64,000 nucleotides of DNA from Vicinamibacterales bacterium (GCA_036675475.1 JAKFEY010000002.1:4459-68458); one strand, 5' to 3'; counted from the first letter of the stretch, positions 7,137-53,565 are shown. The notes: generated by a model not told the origin, from the letters alone. A program made the numbers and translations.

Positions 7137-7976
7137 ATGAAATTCGGTTCCCTCGAACTTGTAAGTCTCTCCGACGGCTGGTTCCGCCTCGATGGCGGCG
7201 CCATGTTTGGCGTCGTGCCGAAGCCGTTGTGGCAGAAGCGCGCGCCGTCGGACGATCGCAATCGCATCCGGCTTGGCCTGCGGCCGCTGCTCGTGCGCGG
7301 CGAGAAGCTGATGATCATCGACGGCGGCATCGGCGCGAAGATGAGCGCGAAGGAGACCGACATCTACGGCATCGATCGAAGCGTGACGCTCGACCAGAGC
7401 CTCGCGGCGGCCGGGCATGCGGCGGCCGACATCGAGATTGCGCTCGCCACCCACCTGCACTTCGATCACATCGGCGACTTCGTGGTGCGCGACGAGGATG
7501 GCACGCTGCGGCCGCACTTCGAGAACGCCCGCTACGTCATCAGGCGCGGAGACTGGGACGATGCGACGCATCCGCATGAGCGCAACCGCGCCAGCTATCT
7601 GCCCGACAATTTCCGGCCGCTCGAAGCGGCAGGGCAGATCGAGTTTCATGACGGCGACGTCGAGGTCATGCCCGGCGTGCGCGTGCGGCGCACCGGCGGG
7701 CACTGCATGCATCACGAGGTGGTGTTCATCGAGAGCGGCGGCCGCACGGCGGTCTTCACCGCCGACATGATTCCCACGACGGCGCACATCGACGAGCCGT
7801 GGATCATGGGCTACGACCTCTATCCGATGGACACGCTGGCGTTCAAGCGCGCGTTCGTGCGCGAGGCGATCGAGCGCGAGTATCTGATCCTGTTCGAGCA
7901 CGATCCCGACATTGCGGCCGGCTACATCCGCGAAAAAGACGGCCGGAAGTACGTCGAGCCGGTGCCGGTAAGCTAG
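7137..7976 (+). CDS. MBL-fold metallo-hydrolase (YtnP-like)
   Basis: LDGGAMFGVVPKPLW, THLHFDH.G, MGYDL.P. Confidence 0.88.
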   Translation: MKFGSLELVSLSDGWFRLDGGAMFGVVPKPLWQKRAPSDDRNRIRLGLRPLLVRGEKLMIIDGGIGAKMSAKETDIYGIDRSVTLDQSLAAAGHAAADIEIALATHLHFDHIGDFVVRDEDGTLRPHFENARYVIRRGDWDDATHPHERNRASYLPDNFRPLEAAGQIEFHDGDVEVMPGVRVRRTGGHCMHHEVVFIESGGRTAVFTADMIPTTAHIDEPWIMGYDLYPMDTLAFKRAFVREAIEREYLILFEHDPDIAAGYIREKDGRKYVEPVPVS

Positions 7977-7989
7977 AATTTCTCCGCAC

Positions 7990-8868
7990 ATGTCAGACAT
8001 CCGGATCGGCATCATCGGGGGCAGCGGCCTGTACGACATGGCCGAGCTCACCGATCGCGAAGAGCGCGTGATCAGCACGCCGTTCGGGGAGCCGTCGGGT
8101 CCGTACGTGATCGCCACGCTGCGCGGCCGGCGTGTGGCGTTTCTCGCGCGGCACGGCGCGGGCCACCGGCTGCTGCCGGGCGAGCTGAACTTCCGCGCCA
8201 ACATCTACGGCTTCAAGGTGCTCGGCGTCGAATGGATTCTGTCGGCGAGCGCCGTCGGCAGCCTGCGCGAAGACTACCGCCCGCTCGACATCGTGATTCC
8301 CGATCAGTTCTTCGATCGCACGAAGGGGCGCGTCAGCACGTTCTTCGGGCAGGGCCTGGTGGCGCACGTGGGCTTCGCGCATCCGTTCTGCGAGCCGCTC
8401 AGCGAGATTGCGTACGCCTCGGCGCAGCGCGCGCTCGCCGACGGCACCGGCCCGGCCGTGCACCGGGGCGGCACCTACGTGTGCATGGAAGGGCCGCAGT
8501 TCTCCACGCTCGCCGAATCGAACCTCTACCGCGCGTGGGGGTTCGACATCATCGGCATGACGAACCTGCAGGAGGCCAAGCTCGCGCGCGAAGCCGAGAT
8601 CTGCTACACCACGCTCGCGCTGGTCACCGACTACGACTGCTGGCATCCGGAGCACGACTCGGTGACCGTCGACATGATCATCGCCAACCTCGTGCAGAAC
8701 GCGAAGAACGCGCAGCAGGTGATCGCCAACGCCGTCGAGCGGCTGCCGATCGCGCGCACCTGCGAATGCCACCGCGCCCTCGCGCACGCCATCATCACCA
8801 GGCCCGACGCCGTTCCGGCGTCCGTCAAGCAGGCCCTGGCGCCCCTGGTGGGCAAGTATCTTTTATGA
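7990..8868 (+). CDS. mtnP: S-methyl-5'-thioadenosine phosphorylase
   Basis: IGIIGGSG, FLARHG, EGPQFST.AES, GMTN..EAKLAREAE, TDYDCW. Confidence 0.92.
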   Translation: MSDIRIGIIGGSGLYDMAELTDREERVISTPFGEPSGPYVIATLRGRRVAFLARHGAGHRLLPGELNFRANIYGFKVLGVEWILSASAVGSLREDYRPLDIVIPDQFFDRTKGRVSTFFGQGLVAHVGFAHPFCEPLSEIAYASAQRALADGTGPAVHRGGTYVCMEGPQFSTLAESNLYRAWGFDIIGMTNLQEAKLAREAEICYTTLALVTDYDCWHPEHDSVTVDMIIANLVQNAKNAQQVIANAVERLPIARTCECHRALAHAIITRPDAVPASVKQALAPLVGKYLL

Positions 8869-9800
8869 AAACAGTCATCACCGGTTCCATCGCCTACGAC
8901 TACCTGATGTCGTTCCCCGGCAAGTTCACCGAGCACTTCCTTGCCGAGCACATGGAGCGTGTCAGCCTCAGCTTCCTGGTCGACACGATGGACAAGCGGC
9001 GCGGCGGCTGCGCGCCGAACATCGCCTACACGCTGGCCCTGCTCGGCGAGACGCCGTACCTGATGGCGACGGCGGGGCAGGACTTCGAGGACTATCGTCA
9101 GTGGCTCGAAGCGGCGAAGGTCGACACGTCACTCGTGCGCGTGGTGCCCGACAAGTTCACGGCCTCTTTTTTCTGCAGCACCGACCAGCACAACAACCAG
9201 ATCGCGTCGTTCTACACCGGCGCCATGGCGCATGCGGCGGAGCTGTCGTTCCGCACGGTGAAGGACTGCGGCCTCGTGATCATCGCCCCGAACGATCCGG
9301 CGGCGATGACGCAGTACGCGGAGGAATGCCGCGCGCTGGGTGTGCGCTTCATCTTCGATCCCGGCCAGCAGTGCGCGCGCATGAGCGGCAGCGAGCTGCA
9401 GGACGGCATTACGGGCGCGTCGGTGCTGATCTGCAACGACTACGAGTTCGAGCTGATCCGGCAGAAGACCGGGCTCTCGGAGGCCGACGTGATTGCCGGC
9501 GCCGATGCGCTGATTGTCACGAAGGGCGAGAAGGGCTCCACGATTCTCACGAAGACCGGATCGATCGACGTGCCGGCCGTGCCGCCGTCGCGCGAAGCGG
9601 ATCCGACCGGTGTGGGTGATGCCTATCGCGGCGGCCTGATGCGCGGGCTCACGCTGGGTCTCGACTGGGAAGCCTGCGGGCGCATGGGCAGCGTGGCCGC
9701 TACGTACGCCCTCGAACATCTCGGCGGGCTCGCCCACGCGTACACGCTCGACGAGTTTCGTAAGCGCTACGCCAGCGCGTTTGGTAAGCCGGGCTTTTAG
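8865..9800 (+). CDS. PfkB-family carbohydrate/nucleoside kinase (adenosine kinase-like)
   Basis: GSIAYD, GGCAPNIAY, FDPGQ, DPTGVGDAYRGG. Confidence 0.88.
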   Translation: MKTVITGSIAYDYLMSFPGKFTEHFLAEHMERVSLSFLVDTMDKRRGGCAPNIAYTLALLGETPYLMATAGQDFEDYRQWLEAAKVDTSLVRVVPDKFTASFFCSTDQHNNQIASFYTGAMAHAAELSFRTVKDCGLVIIAPNDPAAMTQYAEECRALGVRFIFDPGQQCARMSGSELQDGITGASVLICNDYEFELIRQKTGLSEADVIAGADALIVTKGEKGSTILTKTGSIDVPAVPPSREADPTGVGDAYRGGLMRGLTLGLDWEACGRMGSVAATYALEHLGGLAHAYTLDEFRKRYASAFGKPGF

Positions 9801-9806
9801 CGACTC

Positions 9807-9821
9807 TGGCTTGCCGCTTGC
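9807..9821 (+). promoter_or_regulatory. Candidate sigma54 -24/-12 promoter
   Basis: TGGCTT-N5-TTGC upstream of the VWA gene. Confidence 0.4.
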
Positions 9822-9877
9822 ACAGTGCCCCGCCAGAGACCGCAAGCGCATCCGCTCGCGGCAATGGGGAGGCGGCC

Positions 9878-10909
9878 ATGGGGGGCAGGAAGTTCGGCGT
9901 GTTCGGAGCAGTAGTGGCGGCGTCGCTGGCCCTCGGTACGGCGCCGACAGGCGCCCAGGCGCCGCAGCAAAGCCCGCCGCAGCAGACTCCGCCACACCAA
10001 CTTCCGGCACAGCAGCCGCAATCCCCCGTGTTTCGCAGCAGCACCAGCCTCGTCGCGCTCAACGTCATCGTCACCAATCCCGAACAGCAGTACGCGACCG
10101 GCCTCAGCGCCGACGATTTCGAAGTGTTCGAAGATGGGGTGAGGCAGGACGTCCAGTTCTTCGCGGCGGCCGACGTGCCGCTCGATCTCATTCTGTTGAT
10201 TGACGCCAGCTCCAGCATGACCGACAAGGTGGCGGCCGTGCACAAGGCGGCAAGCGGGTTCATCGAGACCATGCGCCCCAGCGATCGCGCCGCCGTCGTG
10301 TCGTTTGCCGACGGCGTGCAGGTGCTGCAGCCGCTCACCGGCGACGCGGCGCTCGTGCGCGCCGCCATCCATCGCACCGGCGCCAAAGGCGCCACCGCGC
10401 TGCACAACGCGATCTACGTCGCGCTCAAGGAATTCGGCCGTCCCGCGACCGCGGCCGGCGAGGTGCGCCGCCAGGCCATTGCCGTGCTGTCTGACGGCGA
10501 AGACACCTCGAGCCTTCTGAGCTTCGACGATGTGCTGGAGATGGCGAAGCGCAGCGGCGTGTCGATTTATACGATCGGGCTGAAGAGCGACCTCGCCGAC
10601 GGCCGTGCCACGCGCGAGCGCCGCTATTTCTCGCAGTCCGATTTCGCGATGAAGCAGCTGGCCATGGAAACCGGCGCGAAGCCGTTCTTCCCCGAGAGCG
10701 TGCACGACCTGAACGGCGTCTACGAGGCGATCGCGACCGAGCTCGCCAGCCAGTATTCGATCGGTTACGTGCCCCGCAACGTGCGCGAAGACGGCAAGTA
10801 CCGCCGCGTCATCGTCCGCGTCACGGACCGGCCCGAGCTGAAGCCGCGCACGCGCACGGGTTACTTCCTGACGGTGGACACGGTCGCGTCGCGGTCGTCG
10901 GATCAGTAG
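9878..10909 (+). CDS. Secreted VWA-domain protein (Acidobacteria VWFA-related type)
   Basis: Signal peptide, FRS...V..NV.V, DF.VFEDGV.Q, MIDAS DASSS, LSDGED, QY.IGY.P. Confidence 0.85.
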   Translation: MGGRKFGVFGAVVAASLALGTAPTGAQAPQQSPPQQTPPHQLPAQQPQSPVFRSSTSLVALNVIVTNPEQQYATGLSADDFEVFEDGVRQDVQFFAAADVPLDLILLIDASSSMTDKVAAVHKAASGFIETMRPSDRAAVVSFADGVQVLQPLTGDAALVRAAIHRTGAKGATALHNAIYVALKEFGRPATAAGEVRRQAIAVLSDGEDTSSLLSFDDVLEMAKRSGVSIYTIGLKSDLADGRATRERRYFSQSDFAMKQLAMETGAKPFFPESVHDLNGVYEAIATELASQYSIGYVPRNVREDGKYRRVIVRVTDRPELKPRTRTGYFLTVDTVASRSSDQ

Positions 10910-48907: not shown

Positions 48908-49789
48908 ATGCGCCATGCTGTGTCGTTCGGCTTCGGGCCGTCAGGCGCGCGTTCGGGATCGCTGGTGGTGTGCGAGCCCGACGAGTACTTCGTTCCTCAT
49001 TTCAATCCCCGTGTGCTGCTGGTCGACGATGATGTGGCGTCGCTCGAGACGTGGGCGCTGCTGCTGGCGGATGCGGGGGTGCGGGTGCAGGTGGCGCCTG
49101 GCGCTGATGCGTGCCTGCGCGCGCTGGGCGAGAGCGCGTATGATCTGGTCGTCATCGACCTGCGGCTGGGCGGCGACAATGGCCTCGACGTCATGCGGCG
49201 GCTGCGCGCGCGTGGCGATCTGACGCCGTTCATTCTGGCCACCGGGCACGCGTCGGTGTCGGTGACGGTGGAGGCCATGCGGCTGGGCGCGCGTACCGTG
49301 CTCGAGAAGCCGCTGATTGGCGACGATTTCCTGGCGCCGGTGCTGCGCGAATTGCGGGCGATGGATGCGGCCGCGCGCGCGCCGGTGGATCCGGGTGCGG
49401 GGTTGTCGGCGGGGCATCGCTGGGCGCGCTATGTGCTCGACGCGTCGCGCGCGGCCGACGACCCGCGGACGCTGGCCGACTGGGCACGTGCGGCGGGCAC
49501 GAGCCGGTCGGCGCTGATTGAAGTGTGCGCGCGGCTCGACATCAATCCGCGCGACGCGCGGGATCTTGCGCGCGTGCTGCGCCTCGTGCGCCGTGTGTCG
49601 GAGCGCTGGGATCCGGAGGCGTCGCTCGACGTCGCCGATCGCCGCACCCTTCGCCGTCTTCTTGTTCGTGCCGGGCTTGGCGCCACTCCCCAGGGCGCCC
49701 GGCCCACGCCGGAGCAGTTTCTCGCGATGCAGCGGTTCGTTCCCCAGACGAACGCGGCGCTCGCGATACTCCGGCAGCTGGTGGGGTAG
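48908..49789 (+). CDS. Response regulator: REC domain plus unclassified HTH-like output domain; start uncertain
   Basis: VLLVDDD, VIDLRL..NGLD, .TG, KP; C-terminal LADWARAAGTSRSAL. Confidence 0.8.
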   Translation: MRHAVSFGFGPSGARSGSLVVCEPDEYFVPHFNPRVLLVDDDVASLETWALLLADAGVRVQVAPGADACLRALGESAYDLVVIDLRLGGDNGLDVMRRLRARGDLTPFILATGHASVSVTVEAMRLGARTVLEKPLIGDDFLAPVLRELRAMDAAARAPVDPGAGLSAGHRWARYVLDASRAADDPRTLADWARAAGTSRSALIEVCARLDINPRDARDLARVLRLVRRVSERWDPEASLDVADRRTLRRLLVRAGLGATPQGARPTPEQFLAMQRFVPQTNAALAILRQLVG

Positions 49790-49809
49790 CGCAGGCCTTC
49801 AGGCCTGCG
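49786..49809 (+). repeat. GTAG-REP-like palindrome
   Basis: GTAG cgcaggcct-tc-aggcctgcg. Confidence 0.75.
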
Positions 49810-49944
49810 GCGGGTAGAGACTACCCCACATTTTTCCGCGCGATTTTACGTACGAAATTACGGGCGATTTTGTCTGTGCTCAACCACGGTGGCGCCGTAG
49901 GCTCTCTGCGAAGCGATGACGCTTCACCCTGATGGGAGAGTGCG

Positions 49945-50172
49945 ATGAATAGAAGGAAAGTCCTGGCAGCCGTGACGCTGGCCGCGATTCTGTCATTCCC
50001 GGCCGCCACCACGGAGATCAAGGCTCTGCACGGGATGCCCGCCGCGCAGTGGACGTATTTCCTCGAAATGGACGCCGAGGAAGCGCTCATCGTCGGTGTC
50101 GGTGGAGCGGTGATGTGCAGCTTCATTCCGGGCATCGGCAGCGTCGCCTGCGGCGTCGCGGGCGCGTTCTAG
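49945..50172 (+). CDS. 75-aa candidate bacteriocin/RiPP precursor
   Basis: GGGAGAG RBS; signal-like leader; Gly/Ala-rich hydrophobic core with 2 Cys ending in Phe; first gene of a SpoIIM/ABC/Yip1 operon. Confidence 0.7.
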   Translation: MNRRKVLAAVTLAAILSFPAATTEIKALHGMPAAQWTYFLEMDAEEALIVGVGGAVMCSFIPGIGSVACGVAGAF

Positions 50173-50194
50173 CGCACATGGGAGGGAGCGCGAC

Positions 50195-50755
50195 ATGAAG
50201 CTGCCGTCATGGAGCGTTCCCTCCTTTCCGACGACATTGCGGCAATTGTGCGCCGTCAATGTGGTCATGCTCGCTTTGTCTGCAGGCGCCGGTTGGTCAG
50301 TCGCCTCGTCGCGAGGCGCGGCCGTTGAAGTGGCCAGAAGCAGCAGCGGGGCTGCCGGAGGCTCGGATGTCATGGACGATGCGCGCGTGATCTTCGTGGC
50401 CAACGTCCGTGTCGCAGCCCTTCTGGTGCTGGGAGCGTGCACGCTGGGAGTCCTCACCGTGGCCGTGTTCCTGTGGAATGGCTACCTCCTCGGCTTTGGT
50501 CTTGCCGCGCTTTATGGCACTCAGCCGGGGAACCTGCTCTACGTTCTGGCATACGCGCCTGTCGAATTCGCCGCGTTCACTCTGGCGTCGGCCGGATCGA
50601 TGCATCTTGCGGTCCGAGTGATGCGGGCGCTTATCGCACGGGAACCGCTCTCTCTGAGGTCGTCGACGGCAGCCTTCGCGCTGTCGCTGCTGTTGCTCGC
50701 CATCGGCGCCGGTATTGAATCCTGTCTGAAAGCCCGCGTGTCGCATCCCTTATGA
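50195..50755 (+). CDS. SpoIIM/DUF95-family membrane protein
   Basis: IF.AN..VA, NG..LG, YAP.E, LL.IGA.IE pattern. Confidence 0.8.
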   Translation: MKLPSWSVPSFPTTLRQLCAVNVVMLALSAGAGWSVASSRGAAVEVARSSSGAAGGSDVMDDARVIFVANVRVAALLVLGACTLGVLTVAVFLWNGYLLGFGLAALYGTQPGNLLYVLAYAPVEFAAFTLASAGSMHLAVRVMRALIAREPLSLRSSTAAFALSLLLLAIGAGIESCLKARVSHPL

Positions 50756-51639
50756 GCGAGGTTCTGAAATTGATCGCGGTCGAGCGCGACTTTCCGGGTT
50801 TCCGGTTTGGCCCCGTAACGCTGGCGTTCGCGCCTGGCGTGGTCCACGGCCTGCTCGGCCCCAACGGTGCGGGCAAGACGACGATGTTGAACCTTATGGC
50901 GCTGCAGTCGCGCCCGGCGTCGGGCTCGATGACCTATGGATCGAGGGTTGTCCCGTGGGCGGATCTGCGATGGAAGCAAACCCTCGCGTATGTGCGTGAA
51001 ACGCCCGCGTTCTATGACGAATTTACCGTCGCCGACACGCTTCGGTTCGCCGGCGCGCTTCACGATCGTTGGGACCTGGCATTGGCCACACGCCTGGCGA
51101 ATCGTTTCGGTCTTGACGGTCGCAAGAGTGTGCGGGCGCTGTCGAAAGGGACCAGAGTCAAGCTCGGGCTCGTCCTGGCGCTGGCGCAGGGTGCTCGCCT
51201 GCTGCTGCTCGACGAGCCTACGGCCGGCGTTGATCCGACGTCCCGAGAGGAACTGCACGACGCCATCAAAGAGCTGCGCCTGGAGAGACCGGACCTCTGC
51301 GTGATCTTGTCGTCTCACCTCTTCGAGGACGTCAATGAGCTGGCCGACCAGTTCCTGATCCTGCGCGATGGCCAGGTCGCCTTCGCCGCGTCTCGGACGG
51401 AACTGGCGGTCATGTCTCTGTATCGGTTGCCCGAGCAGGCCGTCGTCCCGTCCTCCGACGACATTCGGCTGACCTGGGTATCGAAGGGGGAGCGATGGAT
51501 TCTGCTGCCGCGACAGTCCAGGCTCATCGCCACGCTTCGGTCGCTTTCCGGCTGCGTCGAGGACAGGGCCGATGGCTTGATCGCTGCGGCTTATCGCGGT
51601 ACCGTCCAGGCGCACGCCACCGGGAGTACGCCGTGGTGA
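50752..51639 (+). CDS. ABC transporter ATP-binding protein
   Basis: GPNGAGKTT, LSKG, LLLDEPTAGVDP, SSH. Confidence 0.92.
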   Translation: MSEVLKLIAVERDFPGFRFGPVTLAFAPGVVHGLLGPNGAGKTTMLNLMALQSRPASGSMTYGSRVVPWADLRWKQTLAYVRETPAFYDEFTVADTLRFAGALHDRWDLALATRLANRFGLDGRKSVRALSKGTRVKLGLVLALAQGARLLLLDEPTAGVDPTSREELHDAIKELRLERPDLCVILSSHLFEDVNELADQFLILRDGQVAFAASRTELAVMSLYRLPEQAVVPSSDDIRLTWVSKGERWILLPRQSRLIATLRSLSGCVEDRADGLIAAAYRGTVQAHATGSTPW

Positions 51640-52292
51640 ACCATCGCGTGCGAGTGCTGCTGCTCAAGGATCTCAGGCTGCATGGCCGCGGCGTGGCGCT
51701 CATCCAGGCCGCGGCCGTTGCCCTTGTCTGGGTCATGCTTGTCCTTCACCCGAGCGACATGCGACGCCAGGCCAGCTTGCTGTTCAACGTGAACTTCCTG
51801 TTGACCGGCCTCTGGGGAGAATGGCTCGTCTCGCGGGAGAAAACCAAGGGCACCTTCGGGTGGCTTCGCTCGCTGCCAATTGCCGATCGAGACCTCGTCG
51901 CCGCGAAATTTGCCGGCGCCGCGCTCTATGCCGTCGTACTCTGGGCCGTGATGTCGGGGATCCTCGCGGCTTCCTACTTCATGGAGCGCCCGATGGAATG
52001 GCTGCTGCGGGCGATGGCGTTGGTCACATTCGGAGGCATCACACTTGCCGCCCGTTGGCGTTTCACCCAGAAGGTAGGCCAGACCCTGCCCTTTGCTCTG
52101 GTCCTCGTCCTGCTGTTGGGCGTGGCCGCCGCCCAGCGGGGCGGCCGCTGGCCGGCCGGCGCGGTTGCGCTCATTCAAGGCAGTGGAGGACAGGTTGCCG
52201 TCGCTGTCGGACTCCTCACCTGCTATCTCTTCACCGTAGGCGCAACAGCCGTGTGGGTCCGAAGGTCGGATACCTCACGGCTGGTGGAATGA
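51636..52292 (+). CDS. ABC-2-type permease
   Basis: LLLKDLR, EK.KGT...L.SLP....LV.AKF; about 6 TM helices. Confidence 0.8.
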   Translation: MNHRVRVLLLKDLRLHGRGVALIQAAAVALVWVMLVLHPSDMRRQASLLFNVNFLLTGLWGEWLVSREKTKGTFGWLRSLPIADRDLVAAKFAGAALYAVVLWAVMSGILAASYFMERPMEWLLRAMALVTFGGITLAARWRFTQKVGQTLPFALVLVLLLGVAAAQRGGRWPAGAVALIQGSGGQVAVAVGLLTCYLFTVGATAVWVRRSDTSRLVE

Positions 52293-52319: not shown

Positions 52320-52970
52320 ATGCTGATGTTCGTCTGGAGTCCCGTTCGGTTTTTCCACCGCCGTATGCAGAGCAGGCCGGCGTGGACGGCGGCGATAGCA
52401 GCGCCCCTGGCGTGTGCACTGCTCGAGTTGACGGCCACGACCATCTTTGCCGCCAAGAATGAGGCGATGCTCGACCGTCTGGCGGTGGTCACGAACGCGT
52501 CCGTCGGGAGCCTGACCGCAGCCAGATTGTCGACGTTGTCGACCGTCTTCGGATACCCGATGCTTTACGGCATTGTGACGTTCGCAATGATCTGCTTCGA
52601 CATTCTCGGCAGGGATTCGCGCCACGCGCGCCGCATCGCCGAGTTTACGGGCATCGCATTCGCTGCTTGCGTACCGGCGTGCCTCTTCATGTGCCTTGTC
52701 GCGGTAGTGTGGGTGCCTCCTCCGCTCGATCTGCAGCTTCAGGCATCGATGTCGCAGATTGAGCATGCCATCGACGTTTACCGCCAGGCGCTCGCCAGCG
52801 ACCCCTTGATATCTACCGGCCGCACTCTCTACTATGCGTCGCTGGCGTGGCTCGTTGCGCTGCTGGCATGCATCCTCAAGGTGGCAGCCGGGTACACGAC
52901 TCGGGCAGCAGCCGCGGCTGCGTGCGTGCTGTTCGCGGCTTTCGGAGGTGCGTATCTGCTCGTGGCATGA
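52320..52970 (+). CDS. Yip1-like multi-pass membrane protein
   Basis: SP..FF..M...P.W N-terminal motif; about 5 TM helices. Confidence 0.6.
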   Translation: MLMFVWSPVRFFHRRMQSRPAWTAAIAAPLACALLELTATTIFAAKNEAMLDRLAVVTNASVGSLTAARLSTLSTVFGYPMLYGIVTFAMICFDILGRDSRHARRIAEFTGIAFAACVPACLFMCLVAVVWVPPPLDLQLQASMSQIEHAIDVYRQALASDPLISTGRTLYYASLAWLVALLACILKVAAGYTTRAAAAAACVLFAAFGGAYLLVA

Positions 52971-53062: not shown

Positions 53063-53073
53063 GGAGGAACGTG

Positions 53074-53565
53074 ATGCCAGGAATGTCGTGTGTGATGGCG
53101 GTGGCAGTTACCACGCTCGTTGCCATGTTCCTGCCCGCGAGGGCGACGCTCGAGCCGCAGCAGGGTGGAAACCCTCTCGCCGGGCCGTATGACACCAAGC
53201 AGCTTGGTCTCGGCACGCGCGCCACCGTTGTCGTGGCGTTCGCCGCGGATGACTGCAAGGCCTGCGCTGAGGCGATCCCGTTCTACAAGACACTGCTCAA
53301 GGTGCCAGGCATGGACGGAAGCACGCGGCGGCTCATCGTTGTGGCCATGGATGGCGTCTGGCCGGTGAAGGACATCACAGACAAACAGGCGTTCGAGCCA
53401 CATCGGCTGACGTCAGGGCCATATCCGGCCGGCCGGCTCCCCGGTGTGACCAAAGCGCCGACGGTACTCGTCCTCGATGAAAATGGAGCTCCGGTCGGGA
53501 AGTGGGAAGGCCCGCTGACGGATGTGCAGCAGAAGGAAGTCATCGCGGCCGCCAGCAGGCGCTGA
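53074..53565 (+). CDS. Exported thioredoxin-fold (redoxin) protein
   Basis: Signal peptide, VVVAFAADDCKAC, cis-Pro-like APT.LVLDENG, W.G. Confidence 0.75.
   Translation: MPGMSCVMAVAVTTLVAMFLPARATLEPQQGGNPLAGPYDTKQLGLGTRATVVVAFAADDCKACAEAIPFYKTLLKVPGMDGSTRRLIVVAMDGVWPVKDITDKQAFEPHRLTSGPYPAGRLPGVTKAPTVLVLDENGAPVGKWEGPLTDVQQKEVIAAASRR

Follow-up and report, generated by a model that had tools for sequence, protein, structure and literature searches.

What does a short open reading frame (ORF) that stands directly ahead of a SpoIIM gene in an acidobacterial genome encode? The ORF occupies positions 49945..50172 of a 64,000-nucleotide stretch of DNA from a Vicinamibacterales bacterium (JAKFEY010000002.1:4459-68458), referred to here as the window; all window features given below lie on the + strand. 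It encodes 75 amino acids and a stop codon. We read it as the precursor of a secreted, disulfide-stapled hydrophobic peptide of ~40 residues, similar to a bacteriocin or to a peptide of ribosomal synthesis and post-translational modification (RiPP), which would be handled by machinery of the circular-bacteriocin type. We put the probability of this reading at roughly 0.6. An initial annotation of the same DNA had proposed a signal-like leader and a 48-residue core closed into a ring. Our translation of the ORF was identical to the 75-residue product and to the residues quoted there.

The precursor and its conserved module

A Shine-Dalgarno motif, GGGAG, was read from the sequence at 49934..49938, six bases 5' of the ATG. 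The G+C content of the ORF at third (GC3 = 0.81) and second (GC2 = 0.51) codon positions is typical of this genome's coding DNA. A HMMER search of 1.84 billion representative proteins returned 17 matches at E ≤ 1e-3, and 16 of these belong to the peptide family: 15 proteins of 73-89 residues, including the window's own, and P0007, a mis-called fusion that appends the peptide by read-through to a SpoIIM ORF. The remaining match, P0003, is an unrelated repeat protein that matched spuriously and was dropped. We aligned the 15 members (alignment A1), leaving out P0007 and P0003. Seven positions, M1, A8, L12, W36, C58, G65, and C69, are invariant in 15/15, and the stop codon follows the second Cys after exactly six residues in every member. 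Between diverged homologues, the ratio of nonsynonymous to synonymous substitution rates (dN/dS) in the C-terminal core was 0.23-0.63 in 11 of 14 pairs, which indicates that the frame is translated. Short ORFs are common at 65-70% G+C (115 ORFs of at least 30 residues in 12 kb), which would favour an untranslated chance frame. Against a chance origin stand the HMMER-detected family with its invariant residues and fixed stop position, the Shine-Dalgarno motif, the coding-type GC3, the dN/dS below 1 among diverged homologues, and a position before SpoIIM that is fixed in 22 of 23 loci, so that the probability of such an origin is practically negligible. These sequence features indicate that 49945-50172 is a genuine, conserved, and translated gene.

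The peptide matched 0 Pfam families and no bacteriocin model of NCBIfam at E ≤ 0.1, and a word-indexed protein search retrieved nothing but the window's own peptide. By its features, it resembled a cluster that is 44% PF12173 with a likeness of 0.76, where the lead threshold of the tool is 0.9. By these comparisons of sequence, the peptide lies outside every described peptide family. Searched with A1 as a profile, 22 of 401 Vicinamibacterales genomes gave a match. The matches fell in 20/49 genomes of family f10, 1/7 of f9, and 0/50 of the other genomes of f1, the window's own family. In a phylum-wide sample, a match was found in 8/401 genomes, just one of them outside the order. Two of the genomes behind these tallies, G002 and G304, are flagged as unpublished and contribute to the counts alone. 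The locus is also present in soil, rhizosphere, and groundwater metagenomes from ten studies.

The precursor can be divided into a leader, a linker, and a core. Residues 1-23 (49945..50013) form a Sec-signal-like leader, in which an n-region of MNRRK with a charge of +3 is followed by 18 uncharged residues, VLAAVTLAAILSFPAATT (h-region, residues 6-23). This layout recurs in 15/15 members of A1, with an n-region of +1 to +3, 14-27 uncharged residues, and then at least one site that satisfies the -3/-1 rule, the established rule for signal peptidase I sites. The leader was assigned by this rule of thumb rather than by SignalP, and each sequence offers several candidate cleavage sites. Residues 24-33 (50014..50043) make up a linker of low conservation and variable length, which carries 14-residue inserts in two A1 members and contains the Ala27|Leu28 bond. 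Conservation sets in at A34-Q35 (50044..50049), a [P/A]-Q motif, and is followed by a hydrophobic core of 40 residues, W36-F75 (50050..50169), with a grand average of hydropathy (GRAVY) of 1.18.

To describe this boundary, we used 29 distinct canonical tails out of 55 sequences (the 15 members of A1 and 40 ORFs from loci). The information content is ~1-1.7 bits at positions -12 to -3 relative to the Trp, reaches 2.6 bits at -2 (P in 13 and A in 11 of the tails) and 2.7 bits at -1 (Q in 20), and Trp occupies +1 in 29/29. Counted from the C-terminus, W stands at -40 and Cys at -18 and -7 in these tails, which places the two Cys at positions 23 and 34 of the 40-residue module. Because the linker is variable and conservation starts only at -2/-1/+1, a family-wide processing site would be expected next to W36, with a product of 40-41 residues. 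A34-Q35 appears to be its likeliest position.

The Cys pair, Cys58 (TGC, 50116..50118) and Cys69 (TGC, 50149..50151), had been noted in the initial annotation together with the C-terminal end, and both proved to be conserved features of the family. Beyond the invariance in A1, the C-x10-C spacing followed by six residues to the stop was found in 34 of 50 distinct 30-residue tails; Cys occupied -7 in 40 of these tails, and some Cys pair was present in 45. The 29 canonical tails end in L, A, F, G, T, or W. Genomes of genus g33 carry a variant with a 47-residue module and C-x20-C, and the module has 43 residues in a genome of a distant acidobacterial family (G558).

The cleavage after Ala27 that had been proposed, with Leu28 as the new N-terminus, found no such support in the homologue alignment. 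The model built on it combined a Leu28-Phe75 ligation with a Cys58-Cys69 disulfide to give a 48-residue bicyclic peptide. In its favour, I-K-A|L satisfies the -3/-1 rule in the window's sequence, as does T-E-A|L in P0002, the SpoIIM and ATPase genes are present, and the Cys pair is conserved. However, the site lies within residues 24-33, which are conserved neither in sequence nor in length and take up the 14-residue inserts; Leu occurs there in just 3 of 15 members (P0001, P0002, and P0005, by eye), and conservation begins only at -2/-1 before W36. We consider this exact model very improbable. The core had also been called anionic. This holds for the window's member, whose C-terminal 48 residues (L28-F75) lack Lys and Arg and include four acidic residues (net charge -4), and does not hold for the family, since the net charge from Trp to the end runs from -4 in this member to +1 across A1.

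Structure prediction had been suggested as a check for a saposin-like or hairpin fold. An AlphaFold2 model on A1 placed helices at residues 3-29, 35-39, 44-59, and 64-74, that is, two to three helices after the leader, at a predicted local distance difference test score (pLDDT) of 66. A Foldseek comparison of this model with the PDB gave 0 matches, and a saposin-like fold was not recovered.

The cassette and its relation to circular-bacteriocin clusters

The peptide gene is the first of five genes in a cassette of ~3.3 kb, followed by genes for a SpoIIM/DUF95 protein, an ATP-binding cassette (ABC) ATPase, an ABC-2 permease, and a Yip1-family protein. Adjacent genes overlap at stop and start or are separated by 22-27 nt. 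The second gene (50195..50755), which begins 22 nt past the peptide stop, encodes a divergent SpoIIM/DUF95 membrane protein of 186 residues (PF01944, E = 4.1e-10, 40.3 bits), the sole SpoIIM match of the window's genome. Six of its residues, N22, N70, N95, E124, F125, and E175, are invariant across 17 homologues. The ABC transporter ATP-binding protein (50752..51639, 295 residues; ABC_tran, E = 8.3e-22) starts at an ATG that overlaps the SpoIIM stop (ATGA). The ABC-2 type permease (51633..52292, ~219 residues) matched ABC2_membrane_5 (2.7e-7) and ABC2_membrane_4 (4.3e-6). Translation probably begins at GTG 51633 or 51636, in overlap with the ATPase stop. An ORF of maximal length would run from 51495, and homology to the permease of another genome (G044) starts at residue 41 of this longer frame. 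The last gene (52320..52970) encodes a 216-residue membrane protein that has no Pfam match of its own (E ≤ 1); PF04893 was matched by 16 of 18 aligned homologues (best 1.1e-9), and a protein atlas placed the product beside Yip1 clusters with a score of 0.91. This protein is unlikely to be an enzyme because it has no invariant polar residue.

The association is stable across genomes. By tblastn, the SpoIIM, ABC ATPase, and Yip1-like genes were found in 21/21 loci and the permease in 19/21. In 22 of 23 loci, a precursor-like ORF lies 0-244 nt 5' of SpoIIM; the exception is L090, where a Yip1-like gene stands between them. SpoIIM proteins of the order fall into two classes, in which the best 49 places score 98-147 bits and a gap follows down to ≤55 bits. 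The low-scoring class (24-55 bits) was present in 22/22 peptide-bearing genomes of the order. Just one peptide-bearing genome, G090, is represented among the high-scoring places, by a copy that lies 2.9 Mb from its cassette. Open frames of the high-scoring class are 176-669 residues long, mostly 320-450, and lie at sites without the peptide. A divergent SpoIIM with no peptide match at E ≤ 1e-3 was found in 11 genomes, seven of which belong to genus g33, whose peptide is more divergent.

The initial annotation had been led to circular bacteriocins by the peptide, and the genes downstream, SpoIIM/DUF95 and an ABC ATPase, agree with that context. A precursor, SpoIIM, and an ATP-binding protein serve as the working definition of circular-bacteriocin clusters in two mining studies (PMC8534725, PMC8659200). 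As described there, such clusters occur almost only in Firmicutes; besides these, the hosts given are two Actinobacteria and one Thermotogae. The clusters are reported to include, commonly, Yip1 genes and more than one copy of the precursor (PMC8659200), and the cerecyclin cluster includes a YIP1 gene (PMC8534725). Circular bacteriocins are portrayed as lacking disulfides and C-terminal extensions and as depending on a large membrane protein as a key component (PMC13463998), and the account in PMC7132975 likewise gives the known members as lacking Cys pairs. According to PMC8659200, no enzyme for leader removal or ring closure has been identified; DUF95 has been proposed as a candidate cyclising enzyme (PMC13463998).

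We compared the window's system with circular bacteriocins of the AS-48, circularin A, carnocyclin A, gassericin A, cerecyclin, and pumicyclin A types from Bacillota. In both, the precursor is small and hydrophobic, carries an N-terminal leader, and ends without a C-terminal extension in a hydrophobic or aromatic residue; both place the precursor gene beside SpoIIM/DUF95 and an ABC-type ATP-binding protein; and an accessory ABC permease, a Yip1 protein, and several precursor copies are shared with some clusters. In contrast to the circular-bacteriocin core of 58-70 residues with four to five helices, the conserved module here has 40 residues, and at most 54 residues remain after any signal-type cut of the window's precursor. 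Further differences are the invariant Cys pair, the absence of a polybasic patch from the window's peptide, the Sec-signal-like leader with its variable linker, the absence of a large membrane protein from the cassette, and the producer, a diderm acidobacterium rather than one of the Bacillota. Neither the cassette (75, 186, 295, ~219, and 216 residues) nor the interval between its resident flanks encodes a large membrane protein. No Pfam or NCBIfam model of circular bacteriocins matched the window's peptide at E ≤ 0.1. The cluster falls within the operational definition of a circular-bacteriocin cluster; the peptide falls outside the class in length, Cys pair, and model match.

Two other groups of peptides offer partial parallels. 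SDP of Bacillus is described as a 42-residue peptide with one intramolecular disulfide, whose ABC pump needs the Yip1 protein YknW (PMC4887032). Likened by this description, SDP and the window's system share a ~40-residue disulfide peptide and a Yip1-requiring ABC transporter. The SDP partners named in that source are YknX and YknYZ, with no SpoIIM among them, unlike the window's cassette. A second group, some Sec-dependent or Gly-rich class II bacteriocins (the lactobin A/cerein 7B family), are exported by Sec and stabilised by disulfides, and they have in common with the window's product a small, unmodified-looking, Gly/Ala-rich hydrophobic peptide. The NCBIfam model for lactobin A/cerein 7B gave no match at E ≤ 0.1, and to our knowledge families of this type have not been linked to SpoIIM. 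Returning to SDP, export of SdpC proceeds through Sec, with cleavage on either side, and the SDP precursor is much longer. Among the papers listed in a limited literature search, nothing was found that links Acidobacteria or Vicinamibacter with circular bacteriocins or DUF95.

By analogy, the cassette system may be a reduced relative of circular-bacteriocin systems, and it is plausible, though doubtful on balance, that SpoIIM also joins W36 (or Q35) to F75 head to tail. The machinery, the fixed 40-residue length, and the fixed hydrophobic C-terminus speak for ring closure; the shortness of the module, its leader of the Sec type with a variable linker, and the absence of a large membrane protein speak against it. 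A complex prediction of SpoIIM with the precursor scored 0.01 and gave no verdict either way.

A probable disulfide, cargo-like behaviour, and a proposed route

Several loci encode an oxidoreductase near the peptide. In L071 and L072, the Yip1 and ABC genes flank a VKOR-DsbA fusion (VKOR, 1.2e-24; Thioredoxin_4, 9e-12), and in L090 a gene for a membrane-anchored CxxC protein, weakly Trx-like (0.0046), lies between SpoIIM and a permease. A TlpA/ResA-like gene is found 1-2 kb past the cassette in 15 syntenic f10 loci (14 genomes). The window's genome carries a VKOR gene elsewhere and six Omp85 matches, which together indicate a diderm cell with a periplasmic oxidising system. Judged from these genes and the invariant pair, a periplasmic Cys58-Cys69 disulfide is probable and would be the best-supported modification of the peptide.

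The precursors of some genomes behave like cargo. Two genomes, G244 and G090, carry three to four precursors per locus, which share the leader and the PQW boundary and differ in their cores: one core lacks Cys, and two have other Cys spacings at the same length of 39-40 residues. Additional short precursors were found in L066, L068, and L070, and some extra tails are not hydrophobic or lack Cys, such as a 19-residue cationic tail in L066. Orphan precursors (L091:8141-8632, L092:9026-9532, and L093:8437-9280) combine the family leader and a P-R-W boundary with a C-x2-C tail ending in G-C-R-x-C-P. These findings bear on the possibility that the peptide stays inserted in the inner membrane, where it would serve a SpoIIM/ABC-2/Yip1 transporter with another substrate as a small subunit or as a regulator. 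A core as hydrophobic as a membrane helix hairpin (by its GRAVY value, and Gly/Ala-rich), the tight coupling of the peptide gene to the transporter genes, and a cassette that includes neither an outer-membrane exit nor a protease gene are in keeping with a subunit. However, the common leader in front of very different cores, the orphan copies distant from any cassette, and a core that evolves faster than the machinery in close genomes all argue against it, and we regard a subunit as rather unlikely.

The rates behind this last point come from two close genome pairs. In the first, the core dN/dS was 1.72 (12.5 nonsynonymous vs 2.5 synonymous changes), whereas the leader gave 0.43, SpoIIM 0.23, and Yip1 0.32; this raised value rests on 40 codons and one pair. 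The pattern of divergence fits a diversifying secreted product better than a transporter subunit, within small numbers.

That narrow basis weighs against a secreted, disulfide-stapled peptide, and so do several other points. In the second close pair, the core dN/dS was only 0.76, against 0.31-0.32 for the machinery. The 15 TlpA-like neighbours count as one event because they belong to one syntenic block, the thioredoxin-like gene next to the window's cassette is resident, and no oxidoreductase was found among the ORFs scanned near L023, L054, L059, and L067. The cassette genes include no protease, cyclase, or outer-membrane exit component, which leaves release from a diderm cell unexplained. 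The C-terminal 29 hydrophobic residues could equally be a membrane anchor, and the AlphaFold2 model is weak. Among the sequencing runs checked, no RNA record held the peptide stretch. Four libraries labelled metatranscriptomic or RNA-Seq, which may be DNA, gave short low-depth contigs over parts of the cassette, including 50034-50482, and such contigs cannot show transcription.

For the secreted peptide, we propose the following route. The N-terminal segment would carry the precursor across the inner membrane of the diderm host, or anchor it there. Cys58 and Cys69 would be oxidised on the periplasmic side, by the general VKOR in the window's genome and by cassette-encoded oxidoreductases in other lineages. 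Removal of the leader and linker at the [P/A]-Q-W boundary would release ~40-41 residues. The SpoIIM-ATPase pair, the ABC-2 permease, and the Yip1 protein might then mature or expel the membrane-active product, or protect against it, as in circular-bacteriocin clusters. A longer version of this route, in which Sec export and formation of the Cys58-Cys69 disulfide are followed by ring closure through the divergent SpoIIM and its coupled ATPase, would yield a bicyclic 40/41-mer; we hold this full combination to be possible but less likely than not.

Acidobacteriota are abundant in soil and seldom cultured. Were the bicyclic product real, no circular bacteriocin would be smaller, and none before it would have had a native disulfide or come from a diderm phylum; it would be made by a minimal five-gene system in which the cyclising activity would be confined to SpoIIM, the ATPase, the ABC-2 permease, or Yip1. 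Leader loss and ring closure are still unsolved for circular bacteriocins, and the cassette has just four proteins besides the peptide. A cyclic product would thus narrow the search for the cyclase sharply and extend the class to diderm soil bacteria and to smaller, disulfide-braced scaffolds. A linear product would still represent a new acidobacterial family of hydrophobic peptides, led by a Sec signal and stapled by a disulfide.

Resident flanks and variation among loci

The cassette lies between two genes that we identified as resident by comparison with a congener, G003. In G003, the ETF genes are followed by DUF374, the response regulator, a pair of thioredoxin-like genes, HDAC, and LeuS, without the cassette. 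The nucleotide homology between the window and G003 runs up to 49788 and resumes from 53251. The response regulator and the thioredoxin-like gene had been candidates for cassette membership; they are adjacent in G003 without the cassette, and this synteny control therefore assigns both to the resident genes. The response regulator (48908..49789; receiver domain, Response_reg 1.4e-21) has 73% identity to its counterpart in cassette-free G003. The gene on the other side (53071..53565) encodes a periplasmic thioredoxin-fold protein with a C-K-A-C motif (Thioredoxin_2, 0.011; PDB 3kcm, 'thioredoxin family protein', 7e-4). GC3 is 0.72-0.78 in the cassette genes vs 0.82-0.92 in the flanks. The cassette was not found in three congeners or in 50 other genomes of the window's family, and its edges showed no convincing flanking direct repeats or mobile-element marks. 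Its distribution and composition indicate that the cassette is a horizontally acquired insertion between two resident genes.

This placement bears on a further possibility, that the product is a secreted, pheromone-like signal sensed through a regulator and not an antimicrobial. The response regulator gene lies directly 5' of the cassette in the window, and a sigma-54 activator lies 5' of it in G044. However, the window's regulator is resident and present in G003 without the cassette, the four syntenic f10 loci whose ORFs were listed are flanked on the precursor side by MsrB-like (Pfam-confirmed) and ilvD-like ORFs with no regulators, and the cassette contains no sensor kinase. A signalling role is accordingly improbable. 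Inspection by eye only gave no good match to a sigma-54 promoter 5' of the peptide gene.

At the left edge of the cassette, just 3' of the response-regulator gene, lies a terminator-like hairpin with a T-run (49812..49836; stem 49812-49826, tail CACATTTTTC). A long nested palindrome spans 49781-49829 (GGTGGGGTAG ... CTACCCCAC; inner GCAGGCCT/AGGCCTGC) and is followed by the T-run, where the homology to G003 ends. This palindrome may represent either the regulator gene's terminator or an insertion scar. At the right flank, G003 has two tandem thioredoxin-like genes (L099:10017-10337 and 9553-9927) vs one in the window. A low-depth contig from run X19 omits 63 bases of this gene (53469-53533; in frame, 21 codons), probably as a strain variant.

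Variation was also observed at other loci. G244, a complete genome, carries its multi-precursor cluster twice, ~110 kb apart across the record start and with four precursors each (L056, C1:6330000-6349900; L058, C1:17000-36900); between these copies, the canonical cores have diverged at several residues (dN/dS 1.21). The orphan precursors of L091-L093 adjoin PSD/DUF1552-type and FG-GAP genes, and neither a SpoIIM nor an ABC gene lies within 9 kb of them. In 15 f10 loci (L055, at 7839-9062, L053, L056-L058, L060-L066, and L068-L070), a protein of 406-410 residues is encoded 3' of the Yip1 gene and overlaps its stop; the window lacks it. Many Cys, His, Asp, and Trp residues of this protein are invariant, and it gave no Pfam, NCBIfam, or PDB sequence match and an AlphaFold2 pLDDT of 34. 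This protein could be an extra maturation enzyme of the f10 branch. The sole cassette found outside the order lies in G558, from the distant acidobacterial family mentioned above (L090:8000-11000), on an island of 29-34% G+C vs 44-56% in its flanks. Its genes are arranged as peptide, Yip1-like, SpoIIM, Trx-like, permease, ATPase, and permease.

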